This document shows, piece after piece, positions 4,335 to 64,000 of a stretch of DNA of 64,000 bases. The notes under the pieces are model-generated. The model searched no databases, was not told the origin of the DNA, and was given only the letters and a program-made list of their open reading frames with translations. The position numbers were made by a program, and so were the translations under genes. Origin of the DNA: Gordius albopunctatus (taxonomy: Eukaryota); assembly GCA_964276515.1 (NCBI GenBank), contig OZ193909.1:1054001-1118000 (forward strand), written 5' to 3'. Each line of letters starts with the position of its first letter. The stretch's first letter is position 1.

Positions 4335-7300
4335 GTGATCGAAAATATTTTTTTCGTTTTTTTTGACTATTATGACTGTTCCTGTTCCTACCATTGCTAT
4401 TATGACTTTTTGGCCGTCCGCTGGCTGCTGACCAATGGAATAAAATGACCATTGGCCAAAATGTTATTCGAAAATTTTTTTTTCGTTTTTTTTGACTATT
4501 ATGACTGTTCCTGTTCCTACCATTGCTATTATGACTTTTTGGCCGTCCGCTGGCTGCTGACCAATGGAATAAAATGACCATTGGCCAAAATGTGAATCGA
4601 AAATATTTTTTCGTTTTTTTTGAATATTATGATTGTTCCTGTTCCTACCATTGCTATTATGACTTTTTGGCCGTCCGCTGGCTCCTGACCGATGGAAAAA
4701 ATGACCATTGGCCAAAATGTGAATCGAAAATATTTTTTTCGTTTTTTTTGACTATTATGACTGTTCCTGTTCCTACCATTGCTATTATGACTTTTTGGCC
4801 GTCCGCTGGCTGCTGACCAATGGAATAAAATGACCATTGGCCAAAATGTTATTCGAAAATTTTTTTTTCGTTTTTTTTGACTATTATGACTGTTCCTGTT
4901 CCTACCATTGCTATTATGACTTTTTGGCCGTCCGCTGGCTGCTGACCAATGGAATAAAATGACCATTGGCCAAAATGTGAATCGAAAATATTTTTTTCGT
5001 TTTTTTTGACTATTATGACTGTTACTGTTCCTACCATTGCTATTATGACTTTTTGGCCGTCCGCTGGCTGCTGACCAATGGAATAAAATGACCATTGGCC
5101 AAAATGTGAATCGAAAATATTTTTTTCGTTTTTTTTGACTATTATGACTGTTCCTGTTCCTACCATTGCTATTATGACTTTTTGGCCGTCCGCTGGCTGC
5201 TGACCAATGGAATAAAATGACCATTGGCCAAAATGTGAATCGAAAATATTTTTTTCGTTTTTTTTGACTATTATGACTGTTCCTGTTCCTACCATTGCTA
5301 TTATGACTTTTTGGCCGTCCGCTGGCTGCTGACCAATGGAATAAAATGACCATTGGCCAAAATGTTATTCGAAAATTTTTTTTTCGTTTTTTTTGACTAT
5401 TATGAATTTATATCCACTTTTACCGTGTCCTGGCTGCTGACCAATGGAAAAAAATGACCATTGGCCAAAATGTTATTCGAAAATATTTTTTTCGTTTTTT
5501 TTGACTATTATGACTGTTACTGTTCCTACCATTGCTATTATGACTTTTTGGCCGTCCGCTGGCTGCTGACCAATGGAATAAAATGACCATTGGCCAAAAT
5601 GTTATTCGAAAATATTTTTTTCGTTTTTTTTGACTATTATGACTGTTCCTGTTCCTACCATTGCTATTATGACTTTTTGGCCGTCCGCTGGCTGCTGACC
5701 AATGGAATAAAATGACCATTGGCCAAAATGTGAATCGAAAATATTTTTTTCGTTTTTTTTGACTATTATGACTGTTCCTGTTCCTACCATTGCTATTATG
5801 ACTTTTTGGCCGTCCGCTGGCTGCTGACCAATGGAATAAAATGACCATTGGCCAAAATGTTATTCGAAAATTTTTTTTTCGTTTTTTTTGACTATTATGA
5901 ATTTATATCCACTTTTACCGTGTCCTGGCTGCTGACCAATGGAAAAAAATGACCATTGGCCAAAATGTGAATCGAAATTATTTTTTCGTTTTTTTTGACT
6001 ATTATGACTGTTCCTGTTCCTACCATTGCTATTATGACTTTTTGGCCGTCCGCTGGCTGCTGACCAATGGAATAAAATGACCATTGGCCAAAATGTGAAT
6101 CGAAAATATTTTTTTCGTTTTTTTTGACTATTATGACTGTTCCTGTTCCTACCATTGCTATTATGACTTTTTGGCCGTCCGCTGGCTGCTGACCAATGGA
6201 ATAAAATGACCATTGGCCAAAATGTTATTCGAAAATTTTTTTTTCGTTTTTTTTGACTATTATGAATTTATATCCACTTTTACCGTGTCCTGGCTGCTGA
6301 CCAATGGAAAAAAATGACCATTGGCCAAAATGTGAATCGAAATTATTTTTTCGTTTTTTTTGACTATTATGACTGTTCCTGTTCCTACCATTGCTATTAT
6401 GACTTTTTGGCCGTCCGCTGGCTCCTGACCGATGGAAAAAATGACCATTGGCCAAAATGTGAATCGAAAATATTTTTTTCGTTTTTTTTGACTATTATGA
6501 CTGTTCCTGTTCCTACCATTGCTATTATGACTTTTTGGCCGTCCGCTGGCTGCTGACCAATGGAATAAAATGACCATTGGCCAAAATGTTATTCGAAAAT
6601 ATTTTTTTCGTTTTTTTTGACTATTATGACTGTTACTGTTCCTACCATTGCTATTATGACTTTTTGGCCGTCCGCTGGCTGCTGACCAATGGAATAAAAT
6701 GACCATTGGCCAAAATGTTATTCGAAAATTTTTTTTTCGTTTTTTTTGACTATTATGAATTTATATCCACTTTTACCGTGTCCTGGCTGCTGACCAATGG
6801 AAAAAAATGACCATTGGCCAAAATGTTATTCGAAAATATTTTTTTCGTTTTTTTTGACTATTATGACTGTTACTGTTCCTACCATTGCTATTATGACTTT
6901 TTGGCCGTCCGCTGGCTGCTGACCAATGGAATAAAATGACCATTGGCCAAAATGTTATTCGAAAATATTTTTTTCGTTTTTTTTGACTATTATGACTGTT
7001 CCTGTTCCTACCATTGCTATTATGACTTTTTGGCCGTCCGCTGGCTGCTGACCAATGGAATAAAATGACCATTGGCCAAAATGTGAATCGAAAATATTTT
7101 TTTCGTTTTTTTTGACTATTATGACTGTTCCTGTTCCTACCATTGCTATTATGACTTTTTGGCCGTCCGCTGGCTGCTGACCAATGGAATAAAATGACCA
7201 TTGGCCAAAATGTTATTCGAAAATTTTTTTTTCGTTTTTTTTGACTATTATGAATTTATATCCACTTTTACCGTGTCCTGGCTGCTGACCAATGGAAAAA

Positions 7301-8297
7301 AATGACCATTGGCCAAAATGTGAATCGAAATTATTTTTTCGTTTTTTTTGACTATTATGACTGTTCCTGTTCCTACCATTGCTATTATGACTTTTTGGCC
7401 GTCCGCTGGCTGCTGACCAATGGAATAAAATGACCATTGGCCAAAATGTGAATCGAAAATATTTTTTTCGTTTTTTTTGACTATTATGACTGTTCCTGTT
7501 CCTACCATTGCTATTATGACTTTTTGGCCGTCCGCTGGCTGCTGACCAATGGAATAAAATGACCATTGGCCAAAATGTTATTCGAAAATTTTTTTTTCGT
7601 TTTTTTTGACTATTATGAATTTATATCCACTTTTACCGTGTCCTGGCTGCTGACCAATGGAAAAAAATGACCATTGGCCAAAATGTGAATCGAAATTATT
7701 TTTTCGTTTTTTTTGACTATTATGACTGTTCCTGTTCCTACCATTGCTATTATGACTTTTTGGCCGTCCGCTGGCTCCTGACCGATGGAAAAAATGACCA
7801 TTGGCCAAAATGTGAATCGAAAATATTTTTTTCGTTTTTTTTGACTATTATGACTGTTCCTGTTCCTACCATTGCTATTATGACTTTTTGGCCGTCCGCT
7901 GGCTGCTGACCAATGGAATAAAATGACCATTGGCCAAAATGTTATTCGAAAATATTTTTTTCGTTTTTTTTGACTATTATGACTGTTACTGTTCCTACCA
8001 TTGCTATTATGACTTTTTGGCCGTCCGCTGGCTGCTGACCAATGGAATAAAATGACCATTGGCCAAAATGTTATTCGAAAATTTTTTTTTCGTTTTTTTT
8101 GACTATTATGAATTTATATCCACTTTTACCGTGTCCTGGCTGCTGACCAATGGAAAAAAATGACCATTGGCCAAAATGTGAATCGAAATTATTTTTTCCG
8201 TTTTTTTTTTGACTATTATGATTGTTCCTGTTCCTACCATTGCTATTATGACTTTTTGGCCGTCCGCTGGCTGCTGACCAATGGAATAAAATAACCA
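4335..8297. repeat. Tandem satellite array (129-bp and ~108-bp monomers; 1353-bp higher-order repeat)
   Basis: CCATTGGCCAAAATGT recurs every 129 bp. Variant monomer GAATTTATATCCACTTTTACCGTGTCC occurs at 5404, 5899, 6264, 6757, 7252, 7617, 8110 (spacings 495/365/493 repeated twice). Confidence 0.97.
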
Positions 8298-8618
8298 TAA
8301 GGCTGGCTCTACTAATGTGAGTTCGAATCCCGGAGAAGGCAATTTTTTTTAATTAAATCGAAAATTTGTATTAATAATTAACTAATTATTTTACATTTAA
8401 TACCCCCCCCCTCGCCTATAGGCATTCTCACCCCTTCCCACCTTTCTCGCCCATAAATTGCATAGCAAATATGATAAATTTATACGGAGTGTAGATGAGT
8501 TCCCCCTTCCCACGAGGGCCGAAGGCCCGAGTTTATATATATAATATATGAATTTATGTTTATATCAAATATTCTTTATTTGCATTTATTTTGTTATATC
8601 GTTTGGCGTTAGTTCTTC

Positions 8619-27492: not shown

Positions 27493-30400
27493 ACACTACC
27501 AACGACGGTCCCAAGTCCGTGTGAAAAAAGTGGAGGGTTGGCGTCAGGTCGGAAGCCGGCTGTAAAAAGCAACTCCAAACACCATGGCAGCTTCAAATAC
27601 GAACTTATACCAGAATGCTAGGGCGTCCTCCCCAAACGACGCGCATTGCATCATCCGCCCGTGCAATGTGAAAAGTATACAAGGGTCACCGCCTCACTCA
27701 CAACGAAGGCGGTTAAGGAACCTAGTTGTCGAACGGACAAGAGTGGCTAGCTGGAATGTGGGCACGCTGACGGGGAAGAGCATCGAGGTTGCGCAGATGC
27801 TAAAAAGGCGAAGGATATACAAGAAACGCGGTGGCATGGAACAAAAGCTAAGGAGCTAGGAGATGGTTACAAGCTATACTACTCGGGTTCCCCATCACGG
27901 AAGAACGTGGTCGGTATAGTGCTTAGCGATTCATTTAAGGACAAGGTAGTCGAAGTCAAACGATGCTCAGATAGATTGATGTGCATAAAGCTGGCGGATC
28001 AAGGCGGCCTTGTCAATGTTATTTGTGCGTATTCGCCCCAGGTTGGATGTTCCGAAAACGAGAAGGACGAATTCTATGAGAAGCTCGAAGAAGAAATACG
28101 CTACGTGAAGCCTGACGAGAATCTCATCATCGGAGCAGACTTTAATGGGCACGTTGGGAAAGAAAGGGGCGTGTACGAACGAAATCACGGCGGGCATGGC
28201 TATGGAGTGAAAAATAAAGAGGGAGAGAAGTTACTACAGATGGCGCAAGCTTACGATATGACCATTGTGAATACCTTCTTTCAGAAGCGTACCGAACATT
28301 TAGCGACGTTCAGTAGTGGAAATCACCTTACACAGGTCGACTACATATTAGTGAAGCGCAAAATTTGTGGCAAGTTAAAGATTGCAAGGTTATACCGGGG
28401 GAAGAAATCGCCAAACAACATCGGCCAGTTGTCCTCGAAATAGCAAGAAAGATTTTTCCCGTAAGGAGAAAAGTCTACACCCAAGGACAAAGTACGAAAA
28501 GCTTAAGGATGATCGTGCAAATGAAATGTTTCACGCTCGAGCATCTCCGCTCTTGAAGGTTGCAGGCTTGGATGGCGACATTAACAAAAGGTGGGGTACC
28601 GTTGCAAATGTTCTAAAGGAAACGGCCTTTCAAATATTGGGACGAACTAAGGGCGGCAGAGCTCAAAAGCGTGAACTATGGTGGTGGAATGACTCGGTCA
28701 AAGAGGTTATAGAAGAAAATAAGGCGTTGTACCTACGATGGTACAAAACGAAGAAAGGAGAAGACTACGAGGCATATCGTGAAGCGAAACGCAAAGCTAA
28801 GATAGCGGTCGCGATAGCGAAGAACGAGGCTTACACCGAGATGGCAAACAAGCTCGATACCAAGGGCGGCGACATAGTCATGTATAAACTCGCAAAGATC
28901 AGGGAGAAAAAAAGTCGAGATGTCGGGACACTTAAAGTCATTAAAAGCGAAGAGGGACGAACGTTGTGCAAACCGAAGGAAGTCATCAAAAAATGGAAAG
29001 ATTATTTCCAAAATATGATGAACAAAACGAATGATAGAAGACCGCTAGAGAGGGTGGAACCGAACTCGAACTTGGTTTTACCATTTCAGGCTTATGAAAT
29101 AGGAGCACAACTAACGAAGATGCGGAAAGGGAAAGCGCTAGGTCCCGATGATCTACCAATCGAAGCTTGGCTTGGGTGCAAAGGAGAAGGAATCGACATA
29201 ATGACAGGCCTATTTAACGCTATGCTGTATGAGATTCGTATCCCTGACCAATGGAGGGAAAGTACGATCATACCCATATACAAAGGTAAAGGAGACGCGC
29301 AGGAATGTGGCAACTTTAGAGGTATCAAGTTGACCTGCCACTCACTAAAACTACTAGAAAGGGTGCTAGTGAAAAGGCTCAATGACGAAGTTTGTCTCTC
29401 GCCCAATCAGTTTGGATTTGTGGCCGGTAAATCAACGATGGACCCAATCTTTGCGTTGAAGCAGACGATGGAAAAATATGGCGACATAAGAAAGAAATTA
29501 CACATGGTCTTCATCGATTTAGAAAAGGCCTACGATACGGTTCCGAGAGACTTAATATGGTGGTCCCTTAGAGCCAGAAATATACCCGAAGGATATGTTC
29601 GACTTATCAAGGAAATGTATAATGGCGCGGTTGCATCTGTTAGGACTACCGTAGGAGTAACGAAACCCTTCCGAATAATGATCGGACTACATCAAGGATC
29701 AGCGTTAAGCCCATTCTTGTTTAATCTAATTATGGATACAATAACAAAGGACTTGCATAAGCCAGCCCCTTGGACTATGCTATATGCCGACGATATTGTC
29801 CTATGCGATGAAACAAGAGAAGGATTTTTTCATCAGGCGAAAAAATGGTCAGAACGTTTCTCGGAATTCGGGTTAAAGGTCAGCGAGAAGAAAACGGTTT
29901 ACATGCAAACGATGGGCGGTAGTCCGCAAATGCACAAAATTGACGGTCCAAGGTACACGGAGGTTGATAAGTTCACATATCTTGGCTCGCTATTACATCA
30001 AGAGGGAGAATGTACCGCCGAAGTCCATTCTCGGATCAAGAAAGCATGGCTCAAGTGGCGCAGCATCTCCGGTGTCATGTGTGACAAAAAGATACCAATT
30101 TGGTTGAAAAGCAAGGCGTACAAAACCATCGTGCGACCGGTCTTGCTTTACGGGAGCGAAACATGGGCTGTAACCACCGCGGAGGAGAAACTCTTGCAAG
30201 TCACGGAAATGAGAATGGTGCGATGGAGCTTAGGCTACACCAAGCTGGATCGCATGACGAAGGAATCCTTGATGACAAAGATGGGTATACAAGCGACGAA
30301 GGACTTCTTAAGAGAAAATCGACTGCGGTGGTACGGCCATGTATTACGAAGAGACGAAGACGATGTCACACGCCGAACGCTGGAGATGGACGTGCCTGGA

Positions 30401-30566
30401 AGAAGAGAAAGGGGCAGACCACGTGCCACCTGGAAACGACTGGTCGAAAAGGATATGGACGTCAAACAGATGGAAATTGGGATGGCATTCACACGACTCA
30501 GATGGAAGCGGCTGCTGAAAACGTACCCCACGTCTGTGGGATTTTCAACACGATAAAGAAGAGAAG
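27493..30566 (+). mobile_element. Full-length RTE-clade LINE
   Basis: Perfect 18-bp TSD AATTATTGGCATATTGAA (27475-27492, 30567-30584), short 5' UTR, APE endonuclease + RT, GAA-rich 3' tail. Confidence 0.95.
27584..30556 (+). pseudogene. RTE ORF (APE endonuclease + reverse transcriptase), frameshifted
   Basis: SWNVGTL, QETRW, GADFNGHVG, TQVDYIL, GPDDLP, FIDLEKAYD, QGSALSP, YADD; split over ORFs 27584-27859, 27907-28443, 28365-28556, 28382-30556. Confidence 0.9.
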
Positions 30567-47900: not shown

Positions 47901-48451
47901 TATAGGCAGGGCAATAATGATTTAGGGCAAGGCAAAATGATGATTCTTCAAAATTTTAGCTATATAATTATAATAATTATTCAAGTATTTTCAAATTTAG
48001 AGGGGACAGCCGCCCTTCCCGGCCCACCCCATGGCTACGCCCTCGTGGAACAGTCTGTGTTTTTAAAGGGAGAAATATTTTAATGCTGGGGATATAAATA
48101 TGCAATAAATATGTATTTATTTACATGTCTTAAAGGCCGGCCACTCGTATGTTTTTAACGAGCTAAAAATTATGGAAATTTGAATTATTGTAAATCACCC
48201 ATGATCGAAAGTATTCAAATTAAATTATTCACATTTAACATGCTAAATATGATAAAAATGCATAAATAAATTACTATATTATGATTAATGATCAAATAAA
48301 AAAATTTAAAGCTGAGGTTTCCTCGATGGAATCTCATATCGTTCCGTCTCGAGGTCAAAATTCTCGTCTCGATCCAATTTTTCAAAGTTGTAATGGTATG
48401 CATTTGTTATGATGATGTAGGTTCTTTTATATTATATTTTAAGTTTGTTAT

Positions 48452-49320
48452 TCTTATATATAAAAATGAAAGTGTGTGTGTGTGTGTATGTCGCCACCAA
48501 TTTTGGAAAACTACCAGACCGATTTGGCTACCAAAATTTTACAGTTTATTCCCCACAAGATTGGTTCGAGCCAAATCGGTCCAGTAGTTTTCGTGTTTGT
48601 TTTATACGTTTTGACGTTTAATAAAATGTCAATCAAACGCAACCTCATGACGTAATGCGTATCTATTGTGTTCTTTGAAAATGTGAATATACATTTCTTT
48701 AGTAAAAGTGTATCATCACTTAGAGTATTTTCTAGACCGTCATGCGTGTAGGTAGTGTAGTGTGATAAATGTAGACATGTGCTGCGGAAAATGGAAACTT
48801 TTTACGATTTGAAACATTAAATCAAAGTCATTTTTTTGCTTATTTTTCACGTCAATTATTGTTATAGGACAGTGGTGTCCCCTAATAAATTAAAAAATCT
48901 CATTTTATCATTTTTTGCGCGTTAAATAAGGAGAAAAATGAAAACGCTTTTAACAAAGTGCCAATAAATGTTGATATATCTCAGTTCTTTGGACATTATT
49001 AAGTTCAGAATTAAAAGTTTTAATCAGAAATAAATAATTATAATTATGATATTGTTTCTTAATTACAAAAAATATTTAAAAAAAATTGCTTGAAGGGGCA
49101 GGGGGCCAAAGATTTTTCCCTTGGGGGGGGCATGGGACCAGGTTTTCTCTCTTAGATGGGCCTGGGCCTTGGACAATCTTTAACTATTTGTTTAAAAATT
49201 ATCAAACTTCATTTTTACTTCAATAACCCCCCTTTGTCATCATATATGCCCTAAAATTCCAACATAATTCAATACACCCCCCGGGTAAATGGTAAAACAA
49301 CGTTTGCCGGGTTTATCTAG
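48452..49320 (+). mobile_element. Complete non-autonomous Helitron
   Basis: 5' TCTTATATATAAAAATGAAA(GT)n; 3' ...CAACGTTTGCCGGGTTTATCTAG|T; no TSD; second copy at 1-547. Confidence 0.8.
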
Positions 49321-50346
49321 TTAATTTATAAATAACTCAGAATAGCGTTGTCATACTAAAGGATTCTGTAAAGATGGTCGACGCTCGCTTAGAGGCCTGA
49401 TAGACGTGTTGGAAATTTATTATTTTATAATACTTTTCAAAGTGCGAGTTTAACCAGGAACTCTCGTCACAGAGGCAGCCTATCCTAACTACACCACGGT
49501 CCCCTTAGTATTACTCAAATGATAGGCATCTATTGTATTATTTGCTGATGAGCGTAATAGATAATAGAAGATTCCAAAATATTAAACATTTATCCATAGG
49601 CTTTTAAGGTTTTCTTTAATTTTATGGCAGCTTATTTTAATAATCGAAAACTTTACACGTATCAAAAATTTTCACGAGATTACTGAGCTAAAAAAATTTA
49701 TTGCGCAAATTATGAAATGCGATGGTCATTTAGAAATTTGCTTCAAAATTATATTTATAAAAGAACAGGACATTTATCTAAAAACACAGTAAACACGGGG
49801 TATCAATCGTTTAATTAGATTCCGAGGTTCATCGACACAGCAATATAATTTACATCGATCTTTACACAACATTCACTTTGACAAGTTTAATTTAATGGCC
49901 AACAACAATTACTCTACAAATCCAACCATCTTTCATTCTCCGGTGTCAATGTGGTCCTTTTTATCAAAGGATTGAATTAAAAAAGTCCAATTGGCATAAA
50001 AAATAAGGAATTCCATTTTTCAATTATAACACAAGATTCGATATTTCTTATTTATAAAATATTGTTTTAGCTAACCACTTCAATTACGAAAGTTGAGTTG
50101 AAAATAAGTAATGAAAATATTTTATAACCAACTTAATTATACATTTTACTCATCCCTAATATTAATTAAATTTTTTGATGACCATTCTAATCGCCACGTA
50201 AACAATTTTCCATAAAAATGCGCAAACACCAAAGCGTACAAAAAATAATTTGTTGAAATGAGTGCAAAAGGAACATTATGCCGTGGGAATAATAAGAAGA
50301 GGGGGGATATTATTCGAATCGCATTAAAAAAAGAGATAAAAACGCG

Positions 50347-50764
50347 TCACCGAATGTCCAACAATATGGATGCAGGTTGTTGAATGACATATTTAATTTT
50401 TCGCCCAAAAAGTGACCGCCTCTCTCCCATCTATCAATCTATGATGGTCATACGTTAAGGCAACGTACATCATGGGCCTCATTTCGACCTGCGATATACA
50501 ATATTCACACAAAATTCAAAGTAAAAGTATGAAAAATAAAATTTTTAAGGGAATCAAAGGAAAAACCTTGCAGAGATGATAATTTGAAGGAATATACCTT
50601 ATTATTGATGGCTACGGGTCTATCTATCTACGATCGCGTGCATACCCAAAATAGCAGATTGGGGCAGATTTATAATGGGAGTTCCGTAGAGGGAACCAAA
50701 CACGCCCCCGTTTGGTAAAAGTTCCTCCGTCCATATCTTAGATAGCAAGGCTGCCCTTCCTAGC
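50347..50764 (-). pseudogene. DLST: Dihydrolipoamide succinyltransferase (OGDH E2) pseudogene fragment, last two exons with intron
   Basis: Exons 50764-50598 and 50488-50347 (GT-AG intron 50597-50489): [84 protein letters not shown]...LLDIR*, with a stop and several indels. Confidence 0.9.
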
Positions 50765-52437
50765 CTCTAATTTTAACAAAAAAAGAACAAACCGATCAAG
50801 TATCTGGATCAAAACAGCGAATGCGTTTTAAATATAGACGCGTCTTAATACGAGCATCACGTCATTTTTGATTAAGTATTTATTTTATGTCTAGTAGACT
50901 AAAACCAAAGGCCGATCAAACAAGACCCAGCCATTTTTTACAACACTACTTTAAAGGTTTTATCAAGATTATGCTTAGGCAATAAATTTATTTTTTGATT
51001 GCATAAAACATAAATCTTATTTTAACATATGACCACCATAAAGTAACGAGTGTAATGAATAATTATGTACTTATTATTTAACTCATCTGCTTCTATATTT
51101 TTACTTGAAAATAAATTAAGATATTTTTAAGCAATTTTTCCAATTTAAGTCTTGAATCCCTAATCTTGTTGCTTAAATTCTAACCTTTTTTCCAAAAATT
51201 TGCCCGCGTTTTTATATACATCCACATATACTTTATTAAGCAAAGTTTTTAAAGATAAACCCTATAAAATTAGTAACAAAAACAATTAAATCACAAAATC
51301 TGCTTCTCGAAGAGCCAAATTTTATGTATCTCAATGAAAATTTTTTTGAAATAAAACAAGAGTAGAAGCGATCGGATATTAATAAAAATTTTGATACAGG
51401 TATGGTTTCAAAATGGGAGAGCGCGACAAAAGAAATATGTGAAAGCATTCGATCCATCCCCGTTTCATAGGCTACAATTAGAGTGGTGAAAGGGTTAGGG
51501 ATGTTATTCATTTACAATTCCTTACCTAGATTCAGACAAGTCCACCACCCCTAAATGATAGTGAAAATGAGAGAGGGGTAAAGTGATTTTAAAGAAGAGG
51601 AGAGTGATGCATCTTAGCAAATATTAATTTAAAATTATTATACAAAGTTTTAAAAATATAAAAATTAATTAGACTCCGTAAATTATAAACCTGACCCGGC
51701 CTCCCGTTATATTATTATGACTAGGGCGGCAAAGCACATTCTGTTTTAAAGCTGAGTCCTGATGTGGAATACGCTTACATTCCCCGACACAAATGCATTT
51801 AACTCATCGTGCAATAATATTATGTGTAATAAATAATTTTATAAGTCTAAATACAATATGGGAGGCATTTTTATTCTTGCTTCATAGGCAATCTTTATTT
51901 ATACATATATATATAACGATTATTTTAAATGTTCTAAATATTATTTCAAGGTACGCAGATAAATATTACTAAAAATTCCATATTTGTACCAAAAATATTA
52001 ATGTGAGCGAAAATTGTTCATCTAAAACACAATTATTATAACTTATCAAAAAGTCTAACAAATGGGTATTACTTAAGTAGTGTTGAATTTAATTGAAAAT
52101 TATATGTCTTTACAAAGATTTTAATGTATACACCTTTTATAAATGTCTTGAAAGGCTGAATTATGAGAAATTATTAATTAAAAGTTTAACTTTTTAAATC
52201 CATTTAATCTCTAGCTAGTTAATTAATTGATTATGAATGCTTAAAGAATTCATTAAATGGGAAAAATTTTATAAGCTAACAATGAGCAAGACACGTGGTG
52301 TTACTATTACTACAAAATTATCTAAAACCATGAATGGAATGCATTTGGTATTTGGGAGGAGGCAGACACGTCTTTTCATTATCAGAATAACAATACAAAA
52401 ATTAAGAATTTAGGAATTTAGGAATAATGTAGCATTG

Positions 52438-52571
52438 CATGGGCATAGTGAGGATTGGATCAAAATAATACTTTTTACTAATTTTAGTCAAAATTGTTTT
52501 AAATTTTAAAGAATTTTTGGATTTAGAGGGGGTTATCCGCCTCTCCCTGCCATCCCTTGGCTACACCCATA
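52438..52571. mobile_element. hAT-type MITE (CATGGGCGTAGCC family)
   Basis: Degenerate TIRs; TSD TAGCATTG/TAGCGTTG. Confidence 0.7.
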
Positions 52572-52774
52572 TAGCGTTGGTTATAAGTAGCGTTGCGCGT
52601 TATTCTTTTAGTCGGGTAAGAACCGAACCATAGATAAAACGGCATTGCCTCAATTTTATCCCTCAATTCCATTACATTGTATACGGTAGGTATTTAATTT
52701 AACCTATATAATTGATTGACTCCCCTTTTTAAGCACAGTTAATACACATATTTAATTAAAATGTAAGATAGAAC

Positions 52775-52917
52775 CATGGGCGTAGCCGGGGGAGGGGGGG
52801 GGGCAGAGAGGGGCTGCTGCCCCCTTCTAAATCCAAAAATTTGTTGACATTTACTAAAGTTATGGCTAAAAATGATCATTTTGCCCCTCTCTAATTCCAA
52901 TACTGGCTACGCCCATG
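52775..52917. mobile_element. hAT-type MITE (CATGGGCGTAGCC family)
   Basis: Perfect 13-bp TIR; TSD GATAGAAC/CATAGAAC. Confidence 0.85.
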
Positions 52918-53722
52918 CATAGAACCATAGTATGACTTATGGAAAAATAAATTGTAATTTAAACCAGTATTTAATATTTATATGTACTTGTTGTAATATT
53001 TTAATTTGCAATATTACATAACAATCAATGTCGCATTTTATACCTATTTCTTATAAAACACGTAATGATTTGGTGATTGTTGGTATTGAAACTTCGTCAC
53101 ATTCTTTGTATTCTTCTTTTTCGCGTTACTTTCTTAATGACACCCTTTTCCCCGCATTCGCACCGACTCATCCACGGCTTACTATTGGATTTCGCGATCT
53201 TACACCTTTATATATAGCCTCTATCATTCACCTCATAATTACTTATATCACAAAATTTTAATTATTCGAGGAATCATGGTAAGATCCACGCGAGCAAACG
53301 CTTCTCATCCAAACCTCAGCTTAGCGGTCGATGCGCAGGGGGGTCAGGAATCAGAATTAGAGCATTCTGAGGAGGAAAATCAGCCAGGGATCAGTGACCT
53401 GTTAAATGTCATTGCGGAGGAAAACAGGGTCGCCCAGAACCAGTTTAATCAATCCCAACACACAATCAGCCAATTAATACAACAGTTAAGCGTCCAAAGA
53501 GCCGCTCCTCCCCCAGCCATTAACATTATCCAACCAGAACAAACGATCCTATCCCCAGCGGAAAGGATCCTGGACGTAATGGATAAAGTGAAAAAACTGA
53601 AGGAGCTAATGTCCACGTTTCCCACCAAAGTGTCACAAAGGGACAGGAAAGAGGCACAGTATATGTTCCTGGTAACAGAGACACTGAGTGAAGATTCGTC
53701 AGAAATCCTTATAAAGGAAACG

Positions 53723-56700
53723 TGTAGGGGTTTTGACCTACTTTGTTCTAACTAAAGGAACTTTATTAATATCAAACCAAAAGATACAATATAATGGTTC
53801 GATCGCTACGCATTAGTTTATACCATCTGTCGAAGTTAATATACATAACTCGTAAGGTAGTTGGGGGCTATTCAAATTATAATCATTATGAATAGAATAA
53901 GGAGGAGTATGAATAGTGTGTATTCATCGAGTAAGAAGGAATGTGAACAACGTGATATCTAAAAATAAAGGTACCACTATTCTAATTAGGTAATACCATA
54001 TTACCTCCCTCCTTGGTGATAATCGCCTTTTCTATGTTTTTGACAAAATATCAGGTTTACGTTATCTGATTGACACGGGAGCCCAAATTAGTGTAATTCC
54101 ACCGACAACAAAAACTAAAGTAACATTAAATAAATTATGTTTAAAAGCAGCTAATTCGAGCAATATAAATACTTACGGACAAACATCGTTAAAATTAGAT
54201 ATAGGTTTAAAAAGAGAATTTAACTGGACTTTTTTGATCGCAGACGTTCATTCACCGATATTAGGTTCAGATTTTATATCACACTTTGGTTTAATAATTG
54301 ATGTTAAAAATAAACGCATAATTAATCCACAAAATTATTCTCTAAAATTATCGAATATAACCAATTCCTCAATGTCATCTATAAACAGTTCAATTCCACA
54401 GGATAATGATTTTTACTCTATATTAAAACAATTTCCTGATATTACAAAGCCACCAGATTTTAATGACAAAGTGAAACATAATACCCAACACCATATAATA
54501 ACGAAAGGACCCGCGATACATTGTTCTCCACGACGTTTAAATCCCGAAAAATTTAAAATAGCAAAAAAAGAATTTGAAGAGATGAGTAGATTAGGCATAA
54601 TAAAACCCTCACATAGTAAATGGTCATCCCCCTTACATATGGTACCAAAAGAGACCCCAGGGACATGGCGTCCATGTGGAGATTTTAGAATGCTTAATTA
54701 CGCAACAAAACCTGATAGATACCCCATTCCACATCTACATGATTTCGCTTTAAATCTAACAGGTAAATGCATTTTTTCAAAGTTGGATTTAGTAAAAGCT
54801 TACCATCAAATTCCGATGGCACCAGAGGACATCCCTAAGACCGCAATCACAACACCTTTTGGACTGTTTGAATTTGTAAGAATGCCGTTCGGAGTGCGGA
54901 ACGCAGCACAAACATTTCAGCGCCTCATAGATGAAATTTTTAATGGTTTGGATTTTGTGTATGCTTACATCGATGATATACTTATCGCCAGTTCCACAGA
55001 ACATGAACACAAATTACACCTCTCGACAGTTTTTAAACGATTACAAACATACGGTATTCGCATAAATATATCAAAATGTTCTTTGGGAGTAAAATCATTA
55101 AACTTTCTCGGTCATAATGTCGATCAAAATGGCATACGCCCCTTGTCAAACAAAATTGATGCAATTAGGGATTTTCCAATTCCTCAAACCATGAAGAGTT
55201 TGAAACGTTTTTTAGGTATGGTGAATTTTTATAGACGTTTTATACCAAATTGTGCTTCAATTTCGAAACCACTTACCGACTTATTAAACAATGATGAGAA
55301 AGATATTAAAATAATGGAGGTAGAAATGAATTCATTTAATCTCTTAAAAGAAAGTATAATTAAAGCAACCAATTTAGGATTTTTGAAATCAAATAGTTGG
55401 TTAACATTAACCACAGATGCCTCGAACATAGCAGTTGGGGGAGTTTTGCATCAGGTAAGCAATCACAAACAAGAACCATTAGCCTTTTTTTTCTCAAAAA
55501 TTATCAGCAGCTCAAGCACGCTATAGTACATTTAGTCGAGAATTACTAGCTATTTTTTTGGCGATTAAACATTTCAAACACATACTAGAGGGACGCAATT
55601 TTACTATATTTACGGATCATAAACCTTTAATTTATTCTTTCCAGGCAAAAATTGATCGTTATTCACCCAGAGAAATCCGACATTTAGATTATGTCTCTCA
55701 ATTCAGCACTGACATTCGCTTTATAAAAGGTAATAGTAATATTACAGCGGACTATCTCGATCAGACATAAATTCTTTAACTTTACCTATTTGTCCGAATG
55801 AGATTCAAATAGTCTTGAACCAAATGAATGATACTGAGTTATTGCTCAACACTAAATCTTTACGTCTCGTAAAATTAAAAGGACCTGGTTGTCAAGAAGA
55901 CATTCTTTGCGACATATCGACAGGTTCACCTCGACCACTTATACCAACAAAACTAAGAAAGGATTTCTTCGATCACTTTCACTCTCTTTCACATCCCGGG
56001 ATTCGAGCAACTCAAAGACTAATTACTCGCAGTTTTGTGTGGCCCTCGATGAATAAAGATATTCGGAATTGGACAAAAGAATGCATAAAATGTCAAAAGT
56101 CTAAAGTGAACAAACACACTATTACTTCCCCTGGCACTTTTGACGACACCGACGAAAGGTTCAGTCACGTACATATGGATGTGGTAGGCCCTTTGCCACC
56201 TTCATCTCACTACACCCATATTCTTACAGCCATCGATCGCTTTACGAGATGGCCAATCGCAATACCAATCAACGATATATCAGCCGAAAATTTAGCAAGA
56301 ATATTTATTCAACATTGGATTGCCAACTTTGGTGTCCCAAAGATTATAACTACTGATAGAGGTGCTCAATTTACATCCTGTTTATTTCGAGAATTATCAT
56401 CCACATTAGGATTTGACCATATCAAAACTACAGCCTATCACCCGTGTTCTAATGGTTTAGTTGAACGCTTTCATAGGCAATTAAAAGCTTCCATCATGTC
56501 ACAAGAAGATACGACAAAATGGAGTGAAACACTACCATTAATTCTTCTCAGCATTAGGTCGACAATTAAAGAAGATATCGGATGCACCCCTTCGGAAATG
56601 GTTTATGGAACGACGTTAAGGCTACCAGGGGAATATTTTCAAAAATCGTTCATAGACTCATCAAAACCAGGTTATGTAATTAGACTTAAAGAAATAATGC

Positions 56701-57270
56701 AAAATCTAAAATTTTGCCCTACCAGAAGACATGATAAGAAGGAATATATCCCTAACAATCTAAAAACATCAGATTATGTTTTTGTGCGCAATGACACGGT
56801 CAGAAAATCTTTACAACCCCCATATGATGGACCCTTTAAAGTACTAAAAAGGAGAAAGAAATTTTTCATAGTGGAAAAGGGTAATAAAGAGGAAACCATA
56901 TCACTTGATAGGCTTAAACCAGCATGGATCGAAAGAAAAGAAGATTATAGTAACACTTTACCTGTTCAACAACGATTTTCTAGATATGGAAGAACTATAA
57001 CTATTCCACAAAATTTTTCTTATAAATTATAATGTGTATATATATATATTTTTTTTAAGAGGGGGAGTATCTGTAGGGAAACAAATTACACTTACCTTGG
57101 AAAGATTTGGTTGTAATACGTACAAGGTGAAAATAGAAAGAATACACACACAGAATCAATTTTCATTTGAATGTTATCCTTATCTATCGCTATATAAACT
57201 CACTCTTTTATAAGTTTTGGATCATTGTTCTTTTATCGTGTAATAAATTATATTTCTACGCTCTCACTAA
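53723..57270 (+). mobile_element. Ty3/Gypsy LTR retrotransposon (CsRn1-like), gag-less, with dissimilar LTRs
   Basis: TSD (A)AACG; left LTR-like TGTAGGGG 53723-~54012; TGGTGA PBS-like motif at 54014; PR-RT-RH-IN; PPT AGAGGGGGAG; right LTR TGTAGGGA 57072-57270. Confidence 0.88.
54021..57032 (+). pseudogene. Gypsy pol (protease, RT, RNase H, integrase), frameshifted
   Basis: [71 protein letters not shown]; frameshifts near 55490 and 55760-55815. Confidence 0.93.
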
Positions 57271-57336
57271 AAACGCGGGCGCGCCTGACTACCCTCGCTA
57301 CAGCGATTAACTACAACTGGGCTACAGCAGCCAAGA

Positions 57337-59088
57337 ATGACAAATCATTCGCCGAGGACTGAAACATTCCACACCTCGAAGTGGTCCACGCCCGCCGACA
57401 GTTATTTCCTAGCGCTGGCAGAGGCAGAGGCCTCCCAAAGAGCCGCAACGTCAAAAAGACGCCGGCCTCTGCCAGGAATAAGGCGCAAAATTAAAACCTT
57501 GGTTGGATCATGGGAAGTCGGGCCTTCGGGCTTACCGCTTCTCGATGGAGGAAATACGTCCAGGTCTCCCCACTGGCTCGCACGATTAATATTCCAAATT
57601 AGGGAGACGCGCCGCTGGATCTTTTCTCCATCTGAACTCCCGTCTGGGGCGACGGGGGCGATCCATTTACCAAACGATTCTTCATATTCGAAAATATTCT
57701 TTCCCGCCCCCGACTTCGAGCAGCGCATGAAACAAGTGGAGGCCGCCTTTGGCCGGGATGAGGGCTCAGAAATGTTACCCTTATTCAACCTCCACAAATC
57801 CATATTCCAATGGAACAAGGAGCCCATCACAAGACCACCGACGGGCCCCCTCGACATACAGACCACACGGTTAAGGCCCCACCCGCTCCAATTCCCATTC
57901 ACCAAGCGGGTGGCCAGGAAGAGATTCATGCCCAAACTGGACATGCCAAAAATTCGACAACATGGAGGAATATTCCTCACATCACGCCGCAAGGCCATAT
58001 CCCGGGGAAAACCCGAATACCTTCAAACTATGTTGAACGCGGGCATAGTAGAAGAAACCCAGAATGAAATTATTAAATCAGCCACATTCTTTATTCCAAA
58101 GTCAAACGGCGATGCCCGGGTCATCACGGATTTATCCCAAATTTCCAAAATTTTTATCCATTATCCTATCAAACTCGCCTCCATCCCCCTCACCTCCAGA
58201 CAGCTGAGCAGAGCTCTCTTTGCGGCCAAGGTGGACCTGAAGGCGGCATTCTTTAGCATCCCCTTAAACACTTCAGCCCGAAAATATACGGCCTACACAT
58301 TCCGGACCAAAAAGTATAGATACAAGGTCCTCCCGATGGGGGCATCATTCTCCCCATACGTTCTCCAAATGATAGTGGCCGACCTCACGGCTAAGGCGGT
58401 TATTAAATGTAAGTACAATGTTTATTTGGATGACATTCTGATTTATGGGGACTCGTACACAGACGTACAAGAGGATCTGGAGAGGATTTATACCCTGGCG
58501 GCCGAATGGGGCCTGACGGTAAATGCTCAGAAGTCATCCCTCTTACCAGAGAAAAATCTCTTTCGAGGACCACTCCATCAGGTGTACGCCCAAAACGGTC
58601 ACCCGCTTACAATACGCCTCCGACATATTATTCTTCGCGTGCTCCACAAACACGGCTCCACCCACGCATATCCTCTTAAGGCCCTAGGTGTTCTGAACTA
58701 CTTTCTCTACAACCTCACGGGCATGTCTAAACTTCTAGCACCATTCTACGCCTTCCTAACGGACCGTTCCCACCTTTTCAACATGAACACGGCATGCTTC
58801 AAATTATTCGCTATAATCGAATCACTGAAACACCGCATTCCGCTCTAAATTATTCCGGACATGACAATCTACACAGACGCGTCGAACGAACACATAGGTA
58901 TATTCTGCCCCGACAAACAATTCTCCATCACGTTCTCCAACGCAGCAGCAGCCATGAATTACATCCTACCAGAGGACCCCCACATCACGCTGACCGAGAC
59001 GATTGGGGCCCTATACGGATACTTGGTGGGGAGGTACGACGGTCACCCTTTTCCCCGCATTCGCACCGACTCATCCATCGCATTCTAA
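57337..59088 (+). pseudogene. Polymerase (long N-terminal extension, RT, RNase H) of the permuted retroelement
   Basis: FFIPKSNGDARVITDLSQISK, VDLKAAFFSIPL, YRYKVLPMGASFSPYVLQ, YLDD, GLTVNAQKS; in-frame TAA at 58846-58848, then IYTDAS...TETIGAL...IRTDSS. Confidence 0.88.
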
Positions 59089-59299
59089 AATGACTTAATT
59101 CCTATTAAAGCCCCAAAACCCATCCATAAATTTTCAAGCAAACATTGATGTGAAACGATCTAAAAGTTAGAGCAAGATTAAGCAATGGAAAGTCCAGAAA
59201 ACTTGGCTCTTACAGATTCCAAGGGGAAGCGCTAGAGAGATCCTTAATCGAGGCTCTGCCACAGAGGGTTGCGGTTAGAATTATCAACAAATCCAAAGT

Positions 59300-60830
<1,531 letters not shown>

Positions 60831-60834
<4 letters not shown>

Positions 60835-61015
60835 TGTTCTTCATAGATATGTTTTCGGGAATTGTCGAGGGTGTTAAAAAATTATTGTAGTAAATATAAT
60901 ATTTCGTCCTCATAGAGGACATCGTCAGATAAGTAAAATAGAAATATTATATTTACTACAATAATTTTTTAACACCCTCGACAATTCCCGAAAACATATC
61001 TATGAAGAACATTAA
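60831..61015. repeat. Perfect 75-bp inverted repeat with 35-nt spacer
   Basis: 60831-60905 is the exact reverse complement of 60941-61015. Confidence 0.95.
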
Positions 61016-62222
61016 TTATGAGGGTAAAAATCTTCTTAAATAAATTTTAATGTTTTTTAATTCAAGAGTGGTACTGGTTTTATATAATAAATTATGCGTG
61101 GTTGTATCAATTAGTAAATGCTTGCTTTAATAAAATAAAGTTGCTGTTAGTTCTTATGCGATAAGGGATCAAGTCTACCACAAAAGTTTTAACCATATCA
61201 ATATTAGAGAGAGAAAACTTCGACAGGTGTCTTACAAGTTAAGGCAATATAATATATGTCAAGGCCCATGATGGGCTGTAATTTAAAAGATAATTGATTG
61301 TTGCAAATGGGCATTCTACGATATGTATGCAAAGTAACATACTTTTCATTTTTATTAAGTAATAAATAGCGTCCTATAAAAAGTCAAATATTTTCAATAG
61401 AACAAGAATTAAGCTTGTTAAAAATAGCTATACAACCATTGAGGGTCATCAGGAGGATGGCCGGACCAAAAGCTATGAAAGGTTAAGCCCATTCAGAGAG
61501 CATTAAAATGTGACCACTTGTGATATTTGCTCATAGCTTTTTATAAGTATTATTTATAATAAAAAATTAAATTTTTCTTTCGATTCAAGTAAAATTGCAA
61601 CTTAATCAGGCTAATGAAGTACTAATCAATTACCTGATGGTAACTACACCAGCTGATGTTGAATAAAGTAAGCGATCTAATTTATTATCAAATATATTAG
61701 GAATAGTTGATTATAATATAAGCATTAGATCTTTAATTGTTCTTGCATTTTATTATAATTTAAATTTTAATAAAGATGCCTTAGATGTTCTTTAAGAGAC
61801 ATCTGCACCAGTTTAAAATCCACAAAGTATATTCTATAGTTTTGATTTTCTAACCTTAAAAAATTAATTATAACATTTTCGCCATCGGGAAAAGGAAAAA
61901 CAATTTCAATGCTCAATAATTATCTCTATGTAGATGACAAACTTCTATTAATTCCTCAAGCCTACCCGGAGATCTCCTCGGTACACTCAGTTTCTTTTTT
62001 GCAAACACTGTAAATAAATAATTATTTCCCATATATTCGTACTATAGAAATAAGATCTTAAATTTGTCAGCTTCACCTTCAGTAGTATTATTAAAAGCTT
62101 AAGTTTATATTAGATATAGGTGCTTAAAAATTTATTAATAGTAGTAAAACCTTAAAAAACATTGGCCCGGTAAATGTTATACAATGGTCAATATAATCGC
62201 TAAACAAGGTGACAAAACTTGA

Positions 62223-62834
62223 TTAGTTATAATATTTAGGGTACGAGATAGTATTATCGCTTAAGAATTTCTTTTTAGAAACACTTATGCGAAATCCCGT
62301 TTTCCTAGCGCCCACATTTTTGCTTTGGGTGGGTAAAGGCTTAAGTGCTCTTCCTATAATTATGGGTTTCATTTCAAGCTCTCCTACAACACCTTTCGCA
62401 TTCTGTTTGTGAGTCGTTTGAAGCATTTTAACCATGGGGGTAGGACTATTACTTGCGCTACACTGAGAATTATAGGATTCACCAGGCCCAATTCGAGTGG
62501 AATGCCTGAAACGGAGCAAGCTAGATTTTGTCTGAGTTACTGTGACGATGCTCTCTTGGGCCTTGTGCAATTTGGGCGCAGCAACAATGATATTATCCTC
62601 GAATTTAACGTTTTGATGCAGGCGCGTTTTTAAAGCGCCCCGGGTGAGTGTAGTGAAGATTTTCCTTGGGCCGGGATCTGGTGTAGAACGCAACAACGTT
62701 TTGCTTCTATCATTTTTACGCGATGTTTTACCCTTCTTAACCGTGGAACTTACCAAAGGGCAATTTACTTCTCGACTTTCTGGCAATTCATTAGCCATTA
62801 TCGTATCGTTAGCTGATAAATAAATGCAGGACAA
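62223..62834 (-). CDS. Probable exon of an unidentified basic, low-complexity protein
   Basis: 203-codon open frame in an AT-rich background with a plausible acceptor (TTTATCAG) at 62813; no recognisable domain. Confidence 0.35.
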   Translation of the reverse strand: MSCIYLSANDTIMANELPESREVNCPLVSSTVKKGKTSRKNDRSKTLLRSTPDPGPRKIFTTLTRGALKTRLHQNVKFEDNIIVAAPKLHKAQESIVTVTQTKSSLLRFRHSTRIGPGESYNSQCSASNSPTPMVKMLQTTHKQNAKGVVGELEMKPIIIGRALKPLPTQSKNVGARKTGFRISVSKKKFLSDNTISYPKYYN

Positions 62835-64000
62835 AAATGTTAAGGTATAATACTATACATCTATCTTATTTTTTTGCCACACTTAGACTTGTTATCTAGC
62901 GCGGCGTACTAAACCTTGGTTGTTGAAAAGAGTCTATCCTAAGAAGCGCGTTACAAATGTAAGGTCCCTATTTTATCATCCCCTCCGCTAAGGTCCTCCT
63001 AATTCCCAAACAAAATTACTGTGTGCCGACACTTGTTTATTATAGCACCGCCAAATGTGCCCCATTTCATAGCTACACACTTGTGAAGCTTGGATTGGAT
63101 TATTTATACATGACTGCACAGCACATGCGTGTTGTTATTGACAATAAAAATTAGCTAACAAAAACGGCTCACCTTTAAATATGAACAGACCAAAATTTTA
63201 ACGAGAAAAACCTTGGATCTGTGTTTGCGACTGGGTGTAATAGATCAAAAAACAAACCTTTGGTCTTTAACGTTCAGACGATTAAAAGCAAAGGCCGCCG
63301 TTTTTACAACACTACTTAATGGCACATCCGAGTCTCTATGACAAAATAACCACATTGAAAGTCCTCAATTAAATCAAGACCAGCATTATTTTATACACAC
63401 TTTCACACCTCCAGTTACAACACTAGCTACGCGTCATATTAAATCTACTTTTGGAGAAAGCATATATTGAATTTCACTTATTAGCCTCAAGTGTTTTTAA
63501 TAGACAAATTAGTGGGAATCAAGTTTCAAATAGAGAGAAGTTGAAATAATGTTCTATAGACGTTCTCGGGTTAAAATGAAATAGATGAAAAATTCGTAAT
63601 TTAACGGTGGGCTTACTTTATCCTTCCTTATTCAGGGTATTGACTTGAACGGTCTGCTGGCTCGGGGAATTGCGCATGGTGGATGAGAAGGCATGACCCC
63701 CCTGCCCGTTTATGAATAAGGGAAAGGGAGAAGGTGCCCAACTAAGGTCTGCATTTTTTATCGGAGTCTCCAGTTTTCCTTCAATCGATAAATCCAAAAA
63801 TTATTATCATTTCAAATGTATTTTCATTAAATTCTCAAAAATTCAAATGTAGTAACTAAAAATAAGCGAAATTTCGTTTGGATAGAATTTTATAAACAAG
63901 AATTTCAAATTAAAATTAAACAACGCTAATGTTTAATTCTAAAATTAAAGCAAAAGTTCAAAGATTAACAATTAAAGTCGTAAAAATATATGGCAAAAAT

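Follow-up and report, generated by a model that had tools for sequence, protein, structure and literature searches.

HEART elements are genomic reverse transcriptase (RT) elements of invertebrates that fall near the hepadnavirus branch and whose mobilisation is stated to be unresolved (PMC12440569); the accessible text of a second study proposes them as the source of hepadnavirus-like viruses (PMC12691608). The DIRS order of retrotransposons, whose general features are set out in the available part of PMC7192593, has a circular intermediate in its model, and its tyrosine recombinase typically lies in an open reading frame (ORF) separate from the domain linked to the polymerase (pol) (accessible part of bioRxiv 2026.05.21.726589). 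We describe here a locus that has likenesses to both groups. It is found in a stretch of 64,000 bp from Gordius albopunctatus (contig OZ193909.1, positions 1,054,001 to 1,118,000), hereafter the window, to which all coordinates refer. The element between positions 53141 and 59077 is tentatively interpreted as a decayed copy of an undescribed family composed of ORF1 and an RT-RNase H pol. This copy may have been captured from a circularised, internally deleted complementary DNA (cDNA) that was opened in RNase H and end-joined, and was later hit by a Gypsy-type element. A first-pass annotation of the window had described it as a circularly permuted 2.35-kb unit resembling an integrated small circular genome of hepadnavirus or pararetrovirus type. 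Its features are as follows:

53141 to 53174, plus strand: left copy of the 34-bp repeat, coding for RNase H with its third catalytic motif (sequence identity to 59044-59077).
53175 to 53191, plus strand: short continuation of RNase H, present at the left end only, where homology stops (profile match).
53192 to 53275, plus strand: AT-rich leader (guanine-cytosine (GC) fraction 0.27) with TATATA at 53209, likely a promoter or 5′ untranslated region.
53276 to 53722, plus strand: 5′ part of ORF1 (open frame), resembling gag in position only and helical, one long helix being predicted.
53723 to 57270, plus strand: Gypsy-type element with protease, RT, RNase H and integrase (Pfam), gag not seen.
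57271 to 57275, no strand assigned: 5-bp target-site duplication of the Gypsy-type element (by sequence), with its partner at 53718-53722.
57276 to 57494, plus strand: 3′ part of ORF1 (by sequence), with a basic tail and one in-frame stop at 57360-57362.
57289 to 58848, plus strand: pol frame with RT (YLDD; RVT_1, E 4e-24), a frameshifted stretch and an in-frame stop at 58846-58848.
58849 to 59077, plus strand: N-terminal half of RNase H (profile, conserved columns), cut at the right junction and including the right repeat copy at 59044-59077.
59078 to 59087, plus strand: junction decamer, likely an imperfect microhomology with host DNA (6 of 10 positions like the left continuation).

The repeat reported by the first-pass annotation is indeed present in two identical copies at 53141-53174 and 59044-59077 (all 34 nt; blastn E 5e-12), and is the sole exact repeat of at least 25 nt within 48001-64000. 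Its assignment to RNase H was borne out by a Gordionus RNase H profile that matches 58858-59085 (E 2.4e-8), and three of the four conserved acidic residues are present in the N-terminal half of the domain (58849-59077). The right copy carries the sequence that lies upstream in RNase H and the left copy the sequence that lies downstream; both breakpoints are found inside the same 50 nt of a unit longer than 2.3 kb. Bracketed by the two copies are, in this order, the AT-rich leader, ORF1, the Gypsy-type insert, the remainder of ORF1 and the overlapping pol. Removal of the insert leaves, by arithmetic, the 2350 bp calculated at first, and contigs free of Gypsy exist in both public sequencing runs compared here. 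This layout supports a permuted insertion with a short redundancy. Because a short piece of the tail end sits at the front of the element, capture from a DNA circle is likely, rather than insertion by an integrase. Contrary to the first description, no stop follows the right copy directly: the ten nucleotides after it (59078-59087) agree with the left continuation at six positions, a level equalled by 1.4% of host 10-mers. No target-site duplication flanks the element (an equal score is reached by 24% of random pairs).

Profile homology at the left end is limited to 53141-53191 (columns 67-83; score 2.4, not significant alone). The idea that the left copy continues as RNase H holds up to position 53191 and fails beyond it: the remaining 54 profile columns, sought by frameshift-tolerant alignment in 53174-53330, gave nothing better than shuffled sequences (p 0.39-0.57). 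RNase H of the Gordionus relatives runs 54 profile columns past the repeat to the last conserved motif, and their pols end 64-90 amino acids after RNase H in five of six proteins. As the left-end match stops at 53191 and nothing beyond it was recovered by the frameshift-tolerant alignment, no fewer than about 48 codons (probably upwards of 0.3 kb) are missing between the RNase H fragment and the leader. The supposed polymerase C-terminus upstream of ORF1 is thereby reduced to a displaced front piece of about 51 nt, and the 2.35-kb unit is not the complete small circular genome that had been envisaged, because the C-terminal half of RNase H is lacking. The copy has in addition two in-frame stops (57360-57362 and 58846-58848) and a frameshifted stretch near 58540-58680; judged on its reading frames, it is dead. 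RNase H fragment, leader and ORF1 share a single open frame (53141-53722), probably by chance. A diverged RNase H tail entering ORF1 in this frame was considered and rejected, as it gives no profile signal and a shuffled leader stays open in 18% of trials.

Relatives of the element were found in contigs of two public runs that belong to one study and may derive from the assembly's own material. Contigs that have diverged from this copy (about 78-90% alike) together cover 53230-59077 on both sides of the Gypsy-type insert and show no large extra gene; on this nucleotide comparison, the element is a member of a multi-copy family. In the pol core, 13 of 18 listed substitutions fall at third codon positions (p 0.0009; of the 19 rows listed, one lies in the frameshifted stretch and was set aside, and the contig comparisons counted 613 and 393 rows besides those listed). 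Within the 34-mer, up to three third positions are changed in other family copies (rows 59049-59055), whereas the two 34-mers of this locus are identical, which points to a single donor molecule. Most contig alignments stop near 59078. Contig depth, which is not equivalent to copy number, is several-fold higher at 57390-57800 than elsewhere in the element; short family derivatives or terminal repeats may be responsible, or in part a short match to the 129-bp satellite of the window (see below).

The leader has a GC content of 27% (53196-53276) vs 47-56% in the coding parts. It belongs to the family at least from 53230 onwards, since one diverged contig spans 53230-53482 without gaps. ORF1, whose two Gypsy-split pieces were examined separately, has no Pfam match and reaches at best 0.85 in the Atlas comparison (below 0.9); the single-sequence model of its 5′ part (predicted local distance difference test (pLDDT) 47.5) is too poor for a fold search. 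Pfam finds neither integrase nor protease, recombinase or endonuclease in the element frames, in agreement with the first description of this copy, and there is no Rfam match in the element. RNA folding of 57490-57790 is no better than that of shuffles (z −1.6), and of 110 sliding windows tested, a few that lie inside coding parts had z values between −3 and −4.8. Neither inverted terminal repeats with an internal complementary region nor split direct repeats were found in this copy, and short repeats within the unit, among which direct repeats DR1 and DR2 were sought, are at chance level only. The Gypsy-type insertion is itself clearly delimited: in Gypsy-free contigs, three per run in both runs, 53717 is joined to 57271 with 5 letters fitting both sides. 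The two ends of the insert share no mutual likeness by blastn. Contigs break near 53835, 53930 and 54000 within it, which suggests a composite 5′ end.

A search among 1.84 billion representative proteins returned four that reach E 1e-30, three from Gordionus (41-43% identity over RT) and one repetitive frog protein. The Gordionus family members amount to 10 proteins spread over at least five contigs, and by protein similarity close relatives are found only in this hairworm; the window pol is 41% identical to Gordionus P0005. Two family proteins with consecutive accessions on one contig (P0018 and P0166) have the same C-terminal truncation, a local duplication. RVT_1 is the only Pfam match of the Gordionus proteins above cut-off, and the hepadnaviral family PF00336 matches one of the six that have RNase H, below cut-off (E 0.028). 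A simple motif scan found a methylase motif after RNase H in none of these six vs 12 of the 13 DIRS-like rows. Terminal protein (PF00242) has no match in the window or in the Gordionus pols, whose models start a few dozen residues before the RT-proximal helix, and no core (capsid) family was matched by Pfam. Tyrosine recombinase is absent from the copy, its flanks and the tiled family body. No relatives of alignment A2 or of P0006, P0030, P0118 and P0106 were found in viral_contigs, and an alignment of HEART-like rows used as query found no named HEART or hepadnavirus protein. A metagenome scan gave 12 loci with 25-40% identity, of which L001, the one examined, is Gypsy-like. P0030, P0006 and P0106 encode RT-RNase H without a methylase motif on contigs of 1.5-3.6 kb and are candidate small hepadna-adjacent elements; P0030 matches PF00336 (E 8e-4). 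The literature searched, with subscription papers, Repbase and bioRxiv supplements outside its coverage, does not describe this lineage in hairworms, and File 10 of the PMC12691608 supplement mentions neither Gordionus, Gordius nor nematomorphs. The lineage is apparently undescribed.

Trees were built from 55 rows (RT) and 37 rows (RT+RNase H), hand-picked from about 220 proteins, with group labels assigned from domains and motifs. The label HEART-like stands for likeness by eye to tick HEART rows (PMC12691608, available part of Data Set S6) and for the PF00336 match in P0118. The window and Gordionus sequences form one long-stemmed clade (100/99 on RT, 100/100 on RT+RNase H), and Ortervirales rows are on their own side (91/98 and 100/100, respectively). 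With RT alone, the clade comes out on the DIRS side (86/94) but outside a 25-row DIRS core (91/90); grouping of the focal and HEART-like rows is not rejected on RT (approximately unbiased (AU) test, p 0.45). On RT+RNase H, the clade falls together with HEART-like rows and with three unnamed proteins that have short tails (93/87), and nesting with DIRS-like rows is rejected (AU p 0.003, the DIRS-like group having been partly chosen after the tree was seen and including no identified Ngaro sequence). In phylogenetic terms the clade branches deeply in the neighbourhood of DIRS, HEART and Blubervirales but is not a demonstrated member of any of the three; its RNase H leans weakly towards the hepadna-like side. 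The Gordionus RT-RNase H model (pLDDT 88.5) superposes best on models of hepatitis B virus (HBV) P and on an unnamed 634-aa entry (template modelling score (TM) 0.60-0.61). Named caulimoviral and retroviral rows reach at most TM 0.56 among the 50 best matches listed, and the best solved structure is cauliflower mosaic virus (CaMV) RT (TM 0.52). This fold match cannot separate DIRS from hepadna affinity, because DIRS proteins are not in the fold library. The relatives search, both trees and the fold comparison together support the early proposal of an undescribed lineage related to the DIRS/HEART/hepadna group. Unnamed RTs, mostly metagenomic, form another clade in the RT tree (89/85: P0118, P0207, P0063, P0070, P0073, P0078, P0088, P0104, P0132 and P0093); they resemble tick HEART by eye, and P0118 matches hepadnaviral PF00336 (E 7e-6). 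This second clade is possibly part of a wider HEART diversity.

The element is most likely a HEART/DIRS-adjacent retroelement. Its family, without an integrase of its own, would be transcribed from the AT-rich leader and then reverse transcribed. The cDNA that gave rise to this copy would have circularised with loss of the segment between RNase H and leader, and a staggered opening inside RNase H would have left 34 bp at both ends. Host end-joining guided by microhomology would have completed the capture, the Gypsy insertion into the captured copy coming later. Several observations weigh against this scheme. The contigs that tile the family body are different copies, two of whose overlaps are shorter than 31 letters. 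The joint from 59077 back to 53175 is absent among the joints listed (15 of 69 in one contig comparison and 15 of 381 in the other), so that the RNase H-to-leader joint anticipated in other copies did not appear there. One contig runs 378 letters past 59077, no second piece being listed. As the joint is not listed and this contig runs on, other copies are probably without the junction, and the circle rests on one locus; the contig ends near 59078 and the run-on fit other copies continuing into the missing 3′ part. Named HEART or hepadnavirus sequences are absent from the trees, RT alone draws the clade to the DIRS side, and long branches meet in the RT+RNase H tree. A recombinase could also lie in the missing 3′ part of the family, since this part and the termini have never been seen.

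This last point is at the heart of a second explanation that we consider possible, if unlikely, namely a tyrosine-recombinase retrotransposon (Ngaro/PAT-like, without methylase) with its recombinase and split repeats in the deleted 3′ part, the present copy being an accidental integration of a defective circular intermediate. The RT-only tree agrees with it, and DIRS-type recombinase genes usually lie where a segment is missing here. Being typically in a separate ORF, a recombinase would not show in the Gordionus pol models, and the DIRS model has a circular intermediate. Rejection of nesting with DIRS-like rows on RT+RNase H (p 0.003) and the lack of a methylase tail count against this explanation, as does, weakly, an automated survey that found DIRS in none of its nematomorph genomes (accessible part of bioRxiv 2024.06.11.598342). 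We regard as rather improbable a history without a circle, in which a break took up a linear 3′-truncated cDNA, or what was left of two units in head-to-tail order, and the 51 nt of RNase H sequence at the left end were templated as end-joining filler by the donor's opposite end. The shortness of this piece (about 51 nt), its abrupt switch to the AT-rich leader, the imperfect junction microhomology and the lack of the junction in other copies among the joints listed all suit such an event. Templated filler is established at end-joined insertions, and local duplication in the family is seen in P0018 and P0166, the identically truncated Gordionus pair. A linear donor, however, requires that 17 nt were copied from sequence lying past the final right end, followed by trimming, and a tandem remnant needs two independent breaks at most 50 nt apart.

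Endogenisation of a complete 2.35-kb virus of hepadna- or pararetro-like type is very improbable and, as a complete genome, already contradicted. The Gordionus model does fit hepadnaviral P best (TM 0.60-0.61), with DIRS absent from the fold library, and PF00336 is matched by one of six proteins (E 0.028). RNase H is however incomplete, the family is dispersed and multi-copy in two genomes, and no relative was found in viral_contigs. The hepadnavirus or pararetrovirus identity first suggested is unsupported: neither terminal protein nor core is matched, and the RT does not show the motifs of Blubervirales. Least credible of all is that the repeat arose in assembly. The region is rich in repeats, and no contig across the two outer junctions is among those listed, but RNase H-like sequence is found on the left piece that the right copy does not have, and a 34-bp repeat is not long enough to cause a collapse.

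Beyond the capture of this one copy, a broader and distinctly doubtful proposal is that hairworms and this host carry old, active, multi-copy small RT elements without integrase or recombinase, maintained through circular cDNA and dependent on host repair for any entry into chromosomes. Such elements would be genomic intermediates linking retrotransposons with hepadnavirus-like viruses. If true, the proposal would offer a way into the movement of HEART-type elements. With a deep RT-RNase H lineage present in many copies on chromosome-scale Gordionus contigs, the HEART mobilisation question can be tested through termini and junctions, and an insertion in permuted order is the kind of trace that passage of such elements through circles should leave. 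Should a recombinase turn up, the family would instead add to the DIRS order a new deep branch that lacks the methylase, in a phylum for which the automated survey reported no DIRS.

The window contains other features. A short host repeat of very high copy number with inverted ends is found at 52480-52917 and 60079-60270, and a sequence resembling a miniature inverted-repeat transposable element, with 162-nt inverted arms that are 97% complementary, at 59299-59806. The 129-bp satellite, repeated about 30 times at 4339-8298, also has higher-order periods of 258 and 365. A long interspersed nuclear element, RTE-like by reading, has endonuclease and RT in long open frames (27751-30556), and the C-terminal part of a host protein kinase is encoded at 60499-60834 (Pkinase E 0.003).

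Compared to Caulimoviridae and other Ortervirales, the element differs by an RT that falls outside Ortervirales and by giving no aspartic protease match. It shares with Blubervirales (available parts of PMC12691608 and PMC11551314) the small size, an RT-RNase H without integrase, the fold match to HBV P and the weak PF00336 signal in one Gordionus relative. Terminal protein, core, epsilon and DR1/DR2 were not identified here, and the RT motifs of hepadna-, nackedna- and proto-nackednaviruses are absent by eye (PMC12691608, available part of Data Set S6). Blubervirales are known episomal viruses, whereas this family is dispersed, multi-copy and genomic. The likeness to the DIRS order (DIRS-like, PAT, Ngaro and VIPER; accessible parts of PMC7192593 and PMC6681497) consists in an ORF1 overlapping an RT-RNase H frame, the absence of protease and DDE integrase, an RT on the DIRS side against Ortervirales and the circular intermediate proposed for that order (PMC7192593). 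Recombinase, methylase and inverted or split terminal repeats were not seen here, and nesting with DIRS-like rows is rejected on RT+RNase H. As to HEART, tick RTs have [YH][IL]DN after the W-A-W motif (accessible part of PMC12691608) where this clade has YLDD, and the RT-only tree separates the clade from HEART-like rows. On RT+RNase H, however, the tree-mates of the clade are unnamed metagenomic proteins resembling tick HEART RTs by eye, and HEART-like rows and this clade have in common a short tail after RNase H and the same type of terminal RNase H motif. The closest comparison is with the Gordionus proteins (for example XP_065317776.1, XP_065315139.1 and CAK9296137.1), annotated as uncharacterised, which differ from the present copy by keeping a full RNase H and a tail of ~70 amino acids, and which belong to the same clade with a colinear RT-RNase H.

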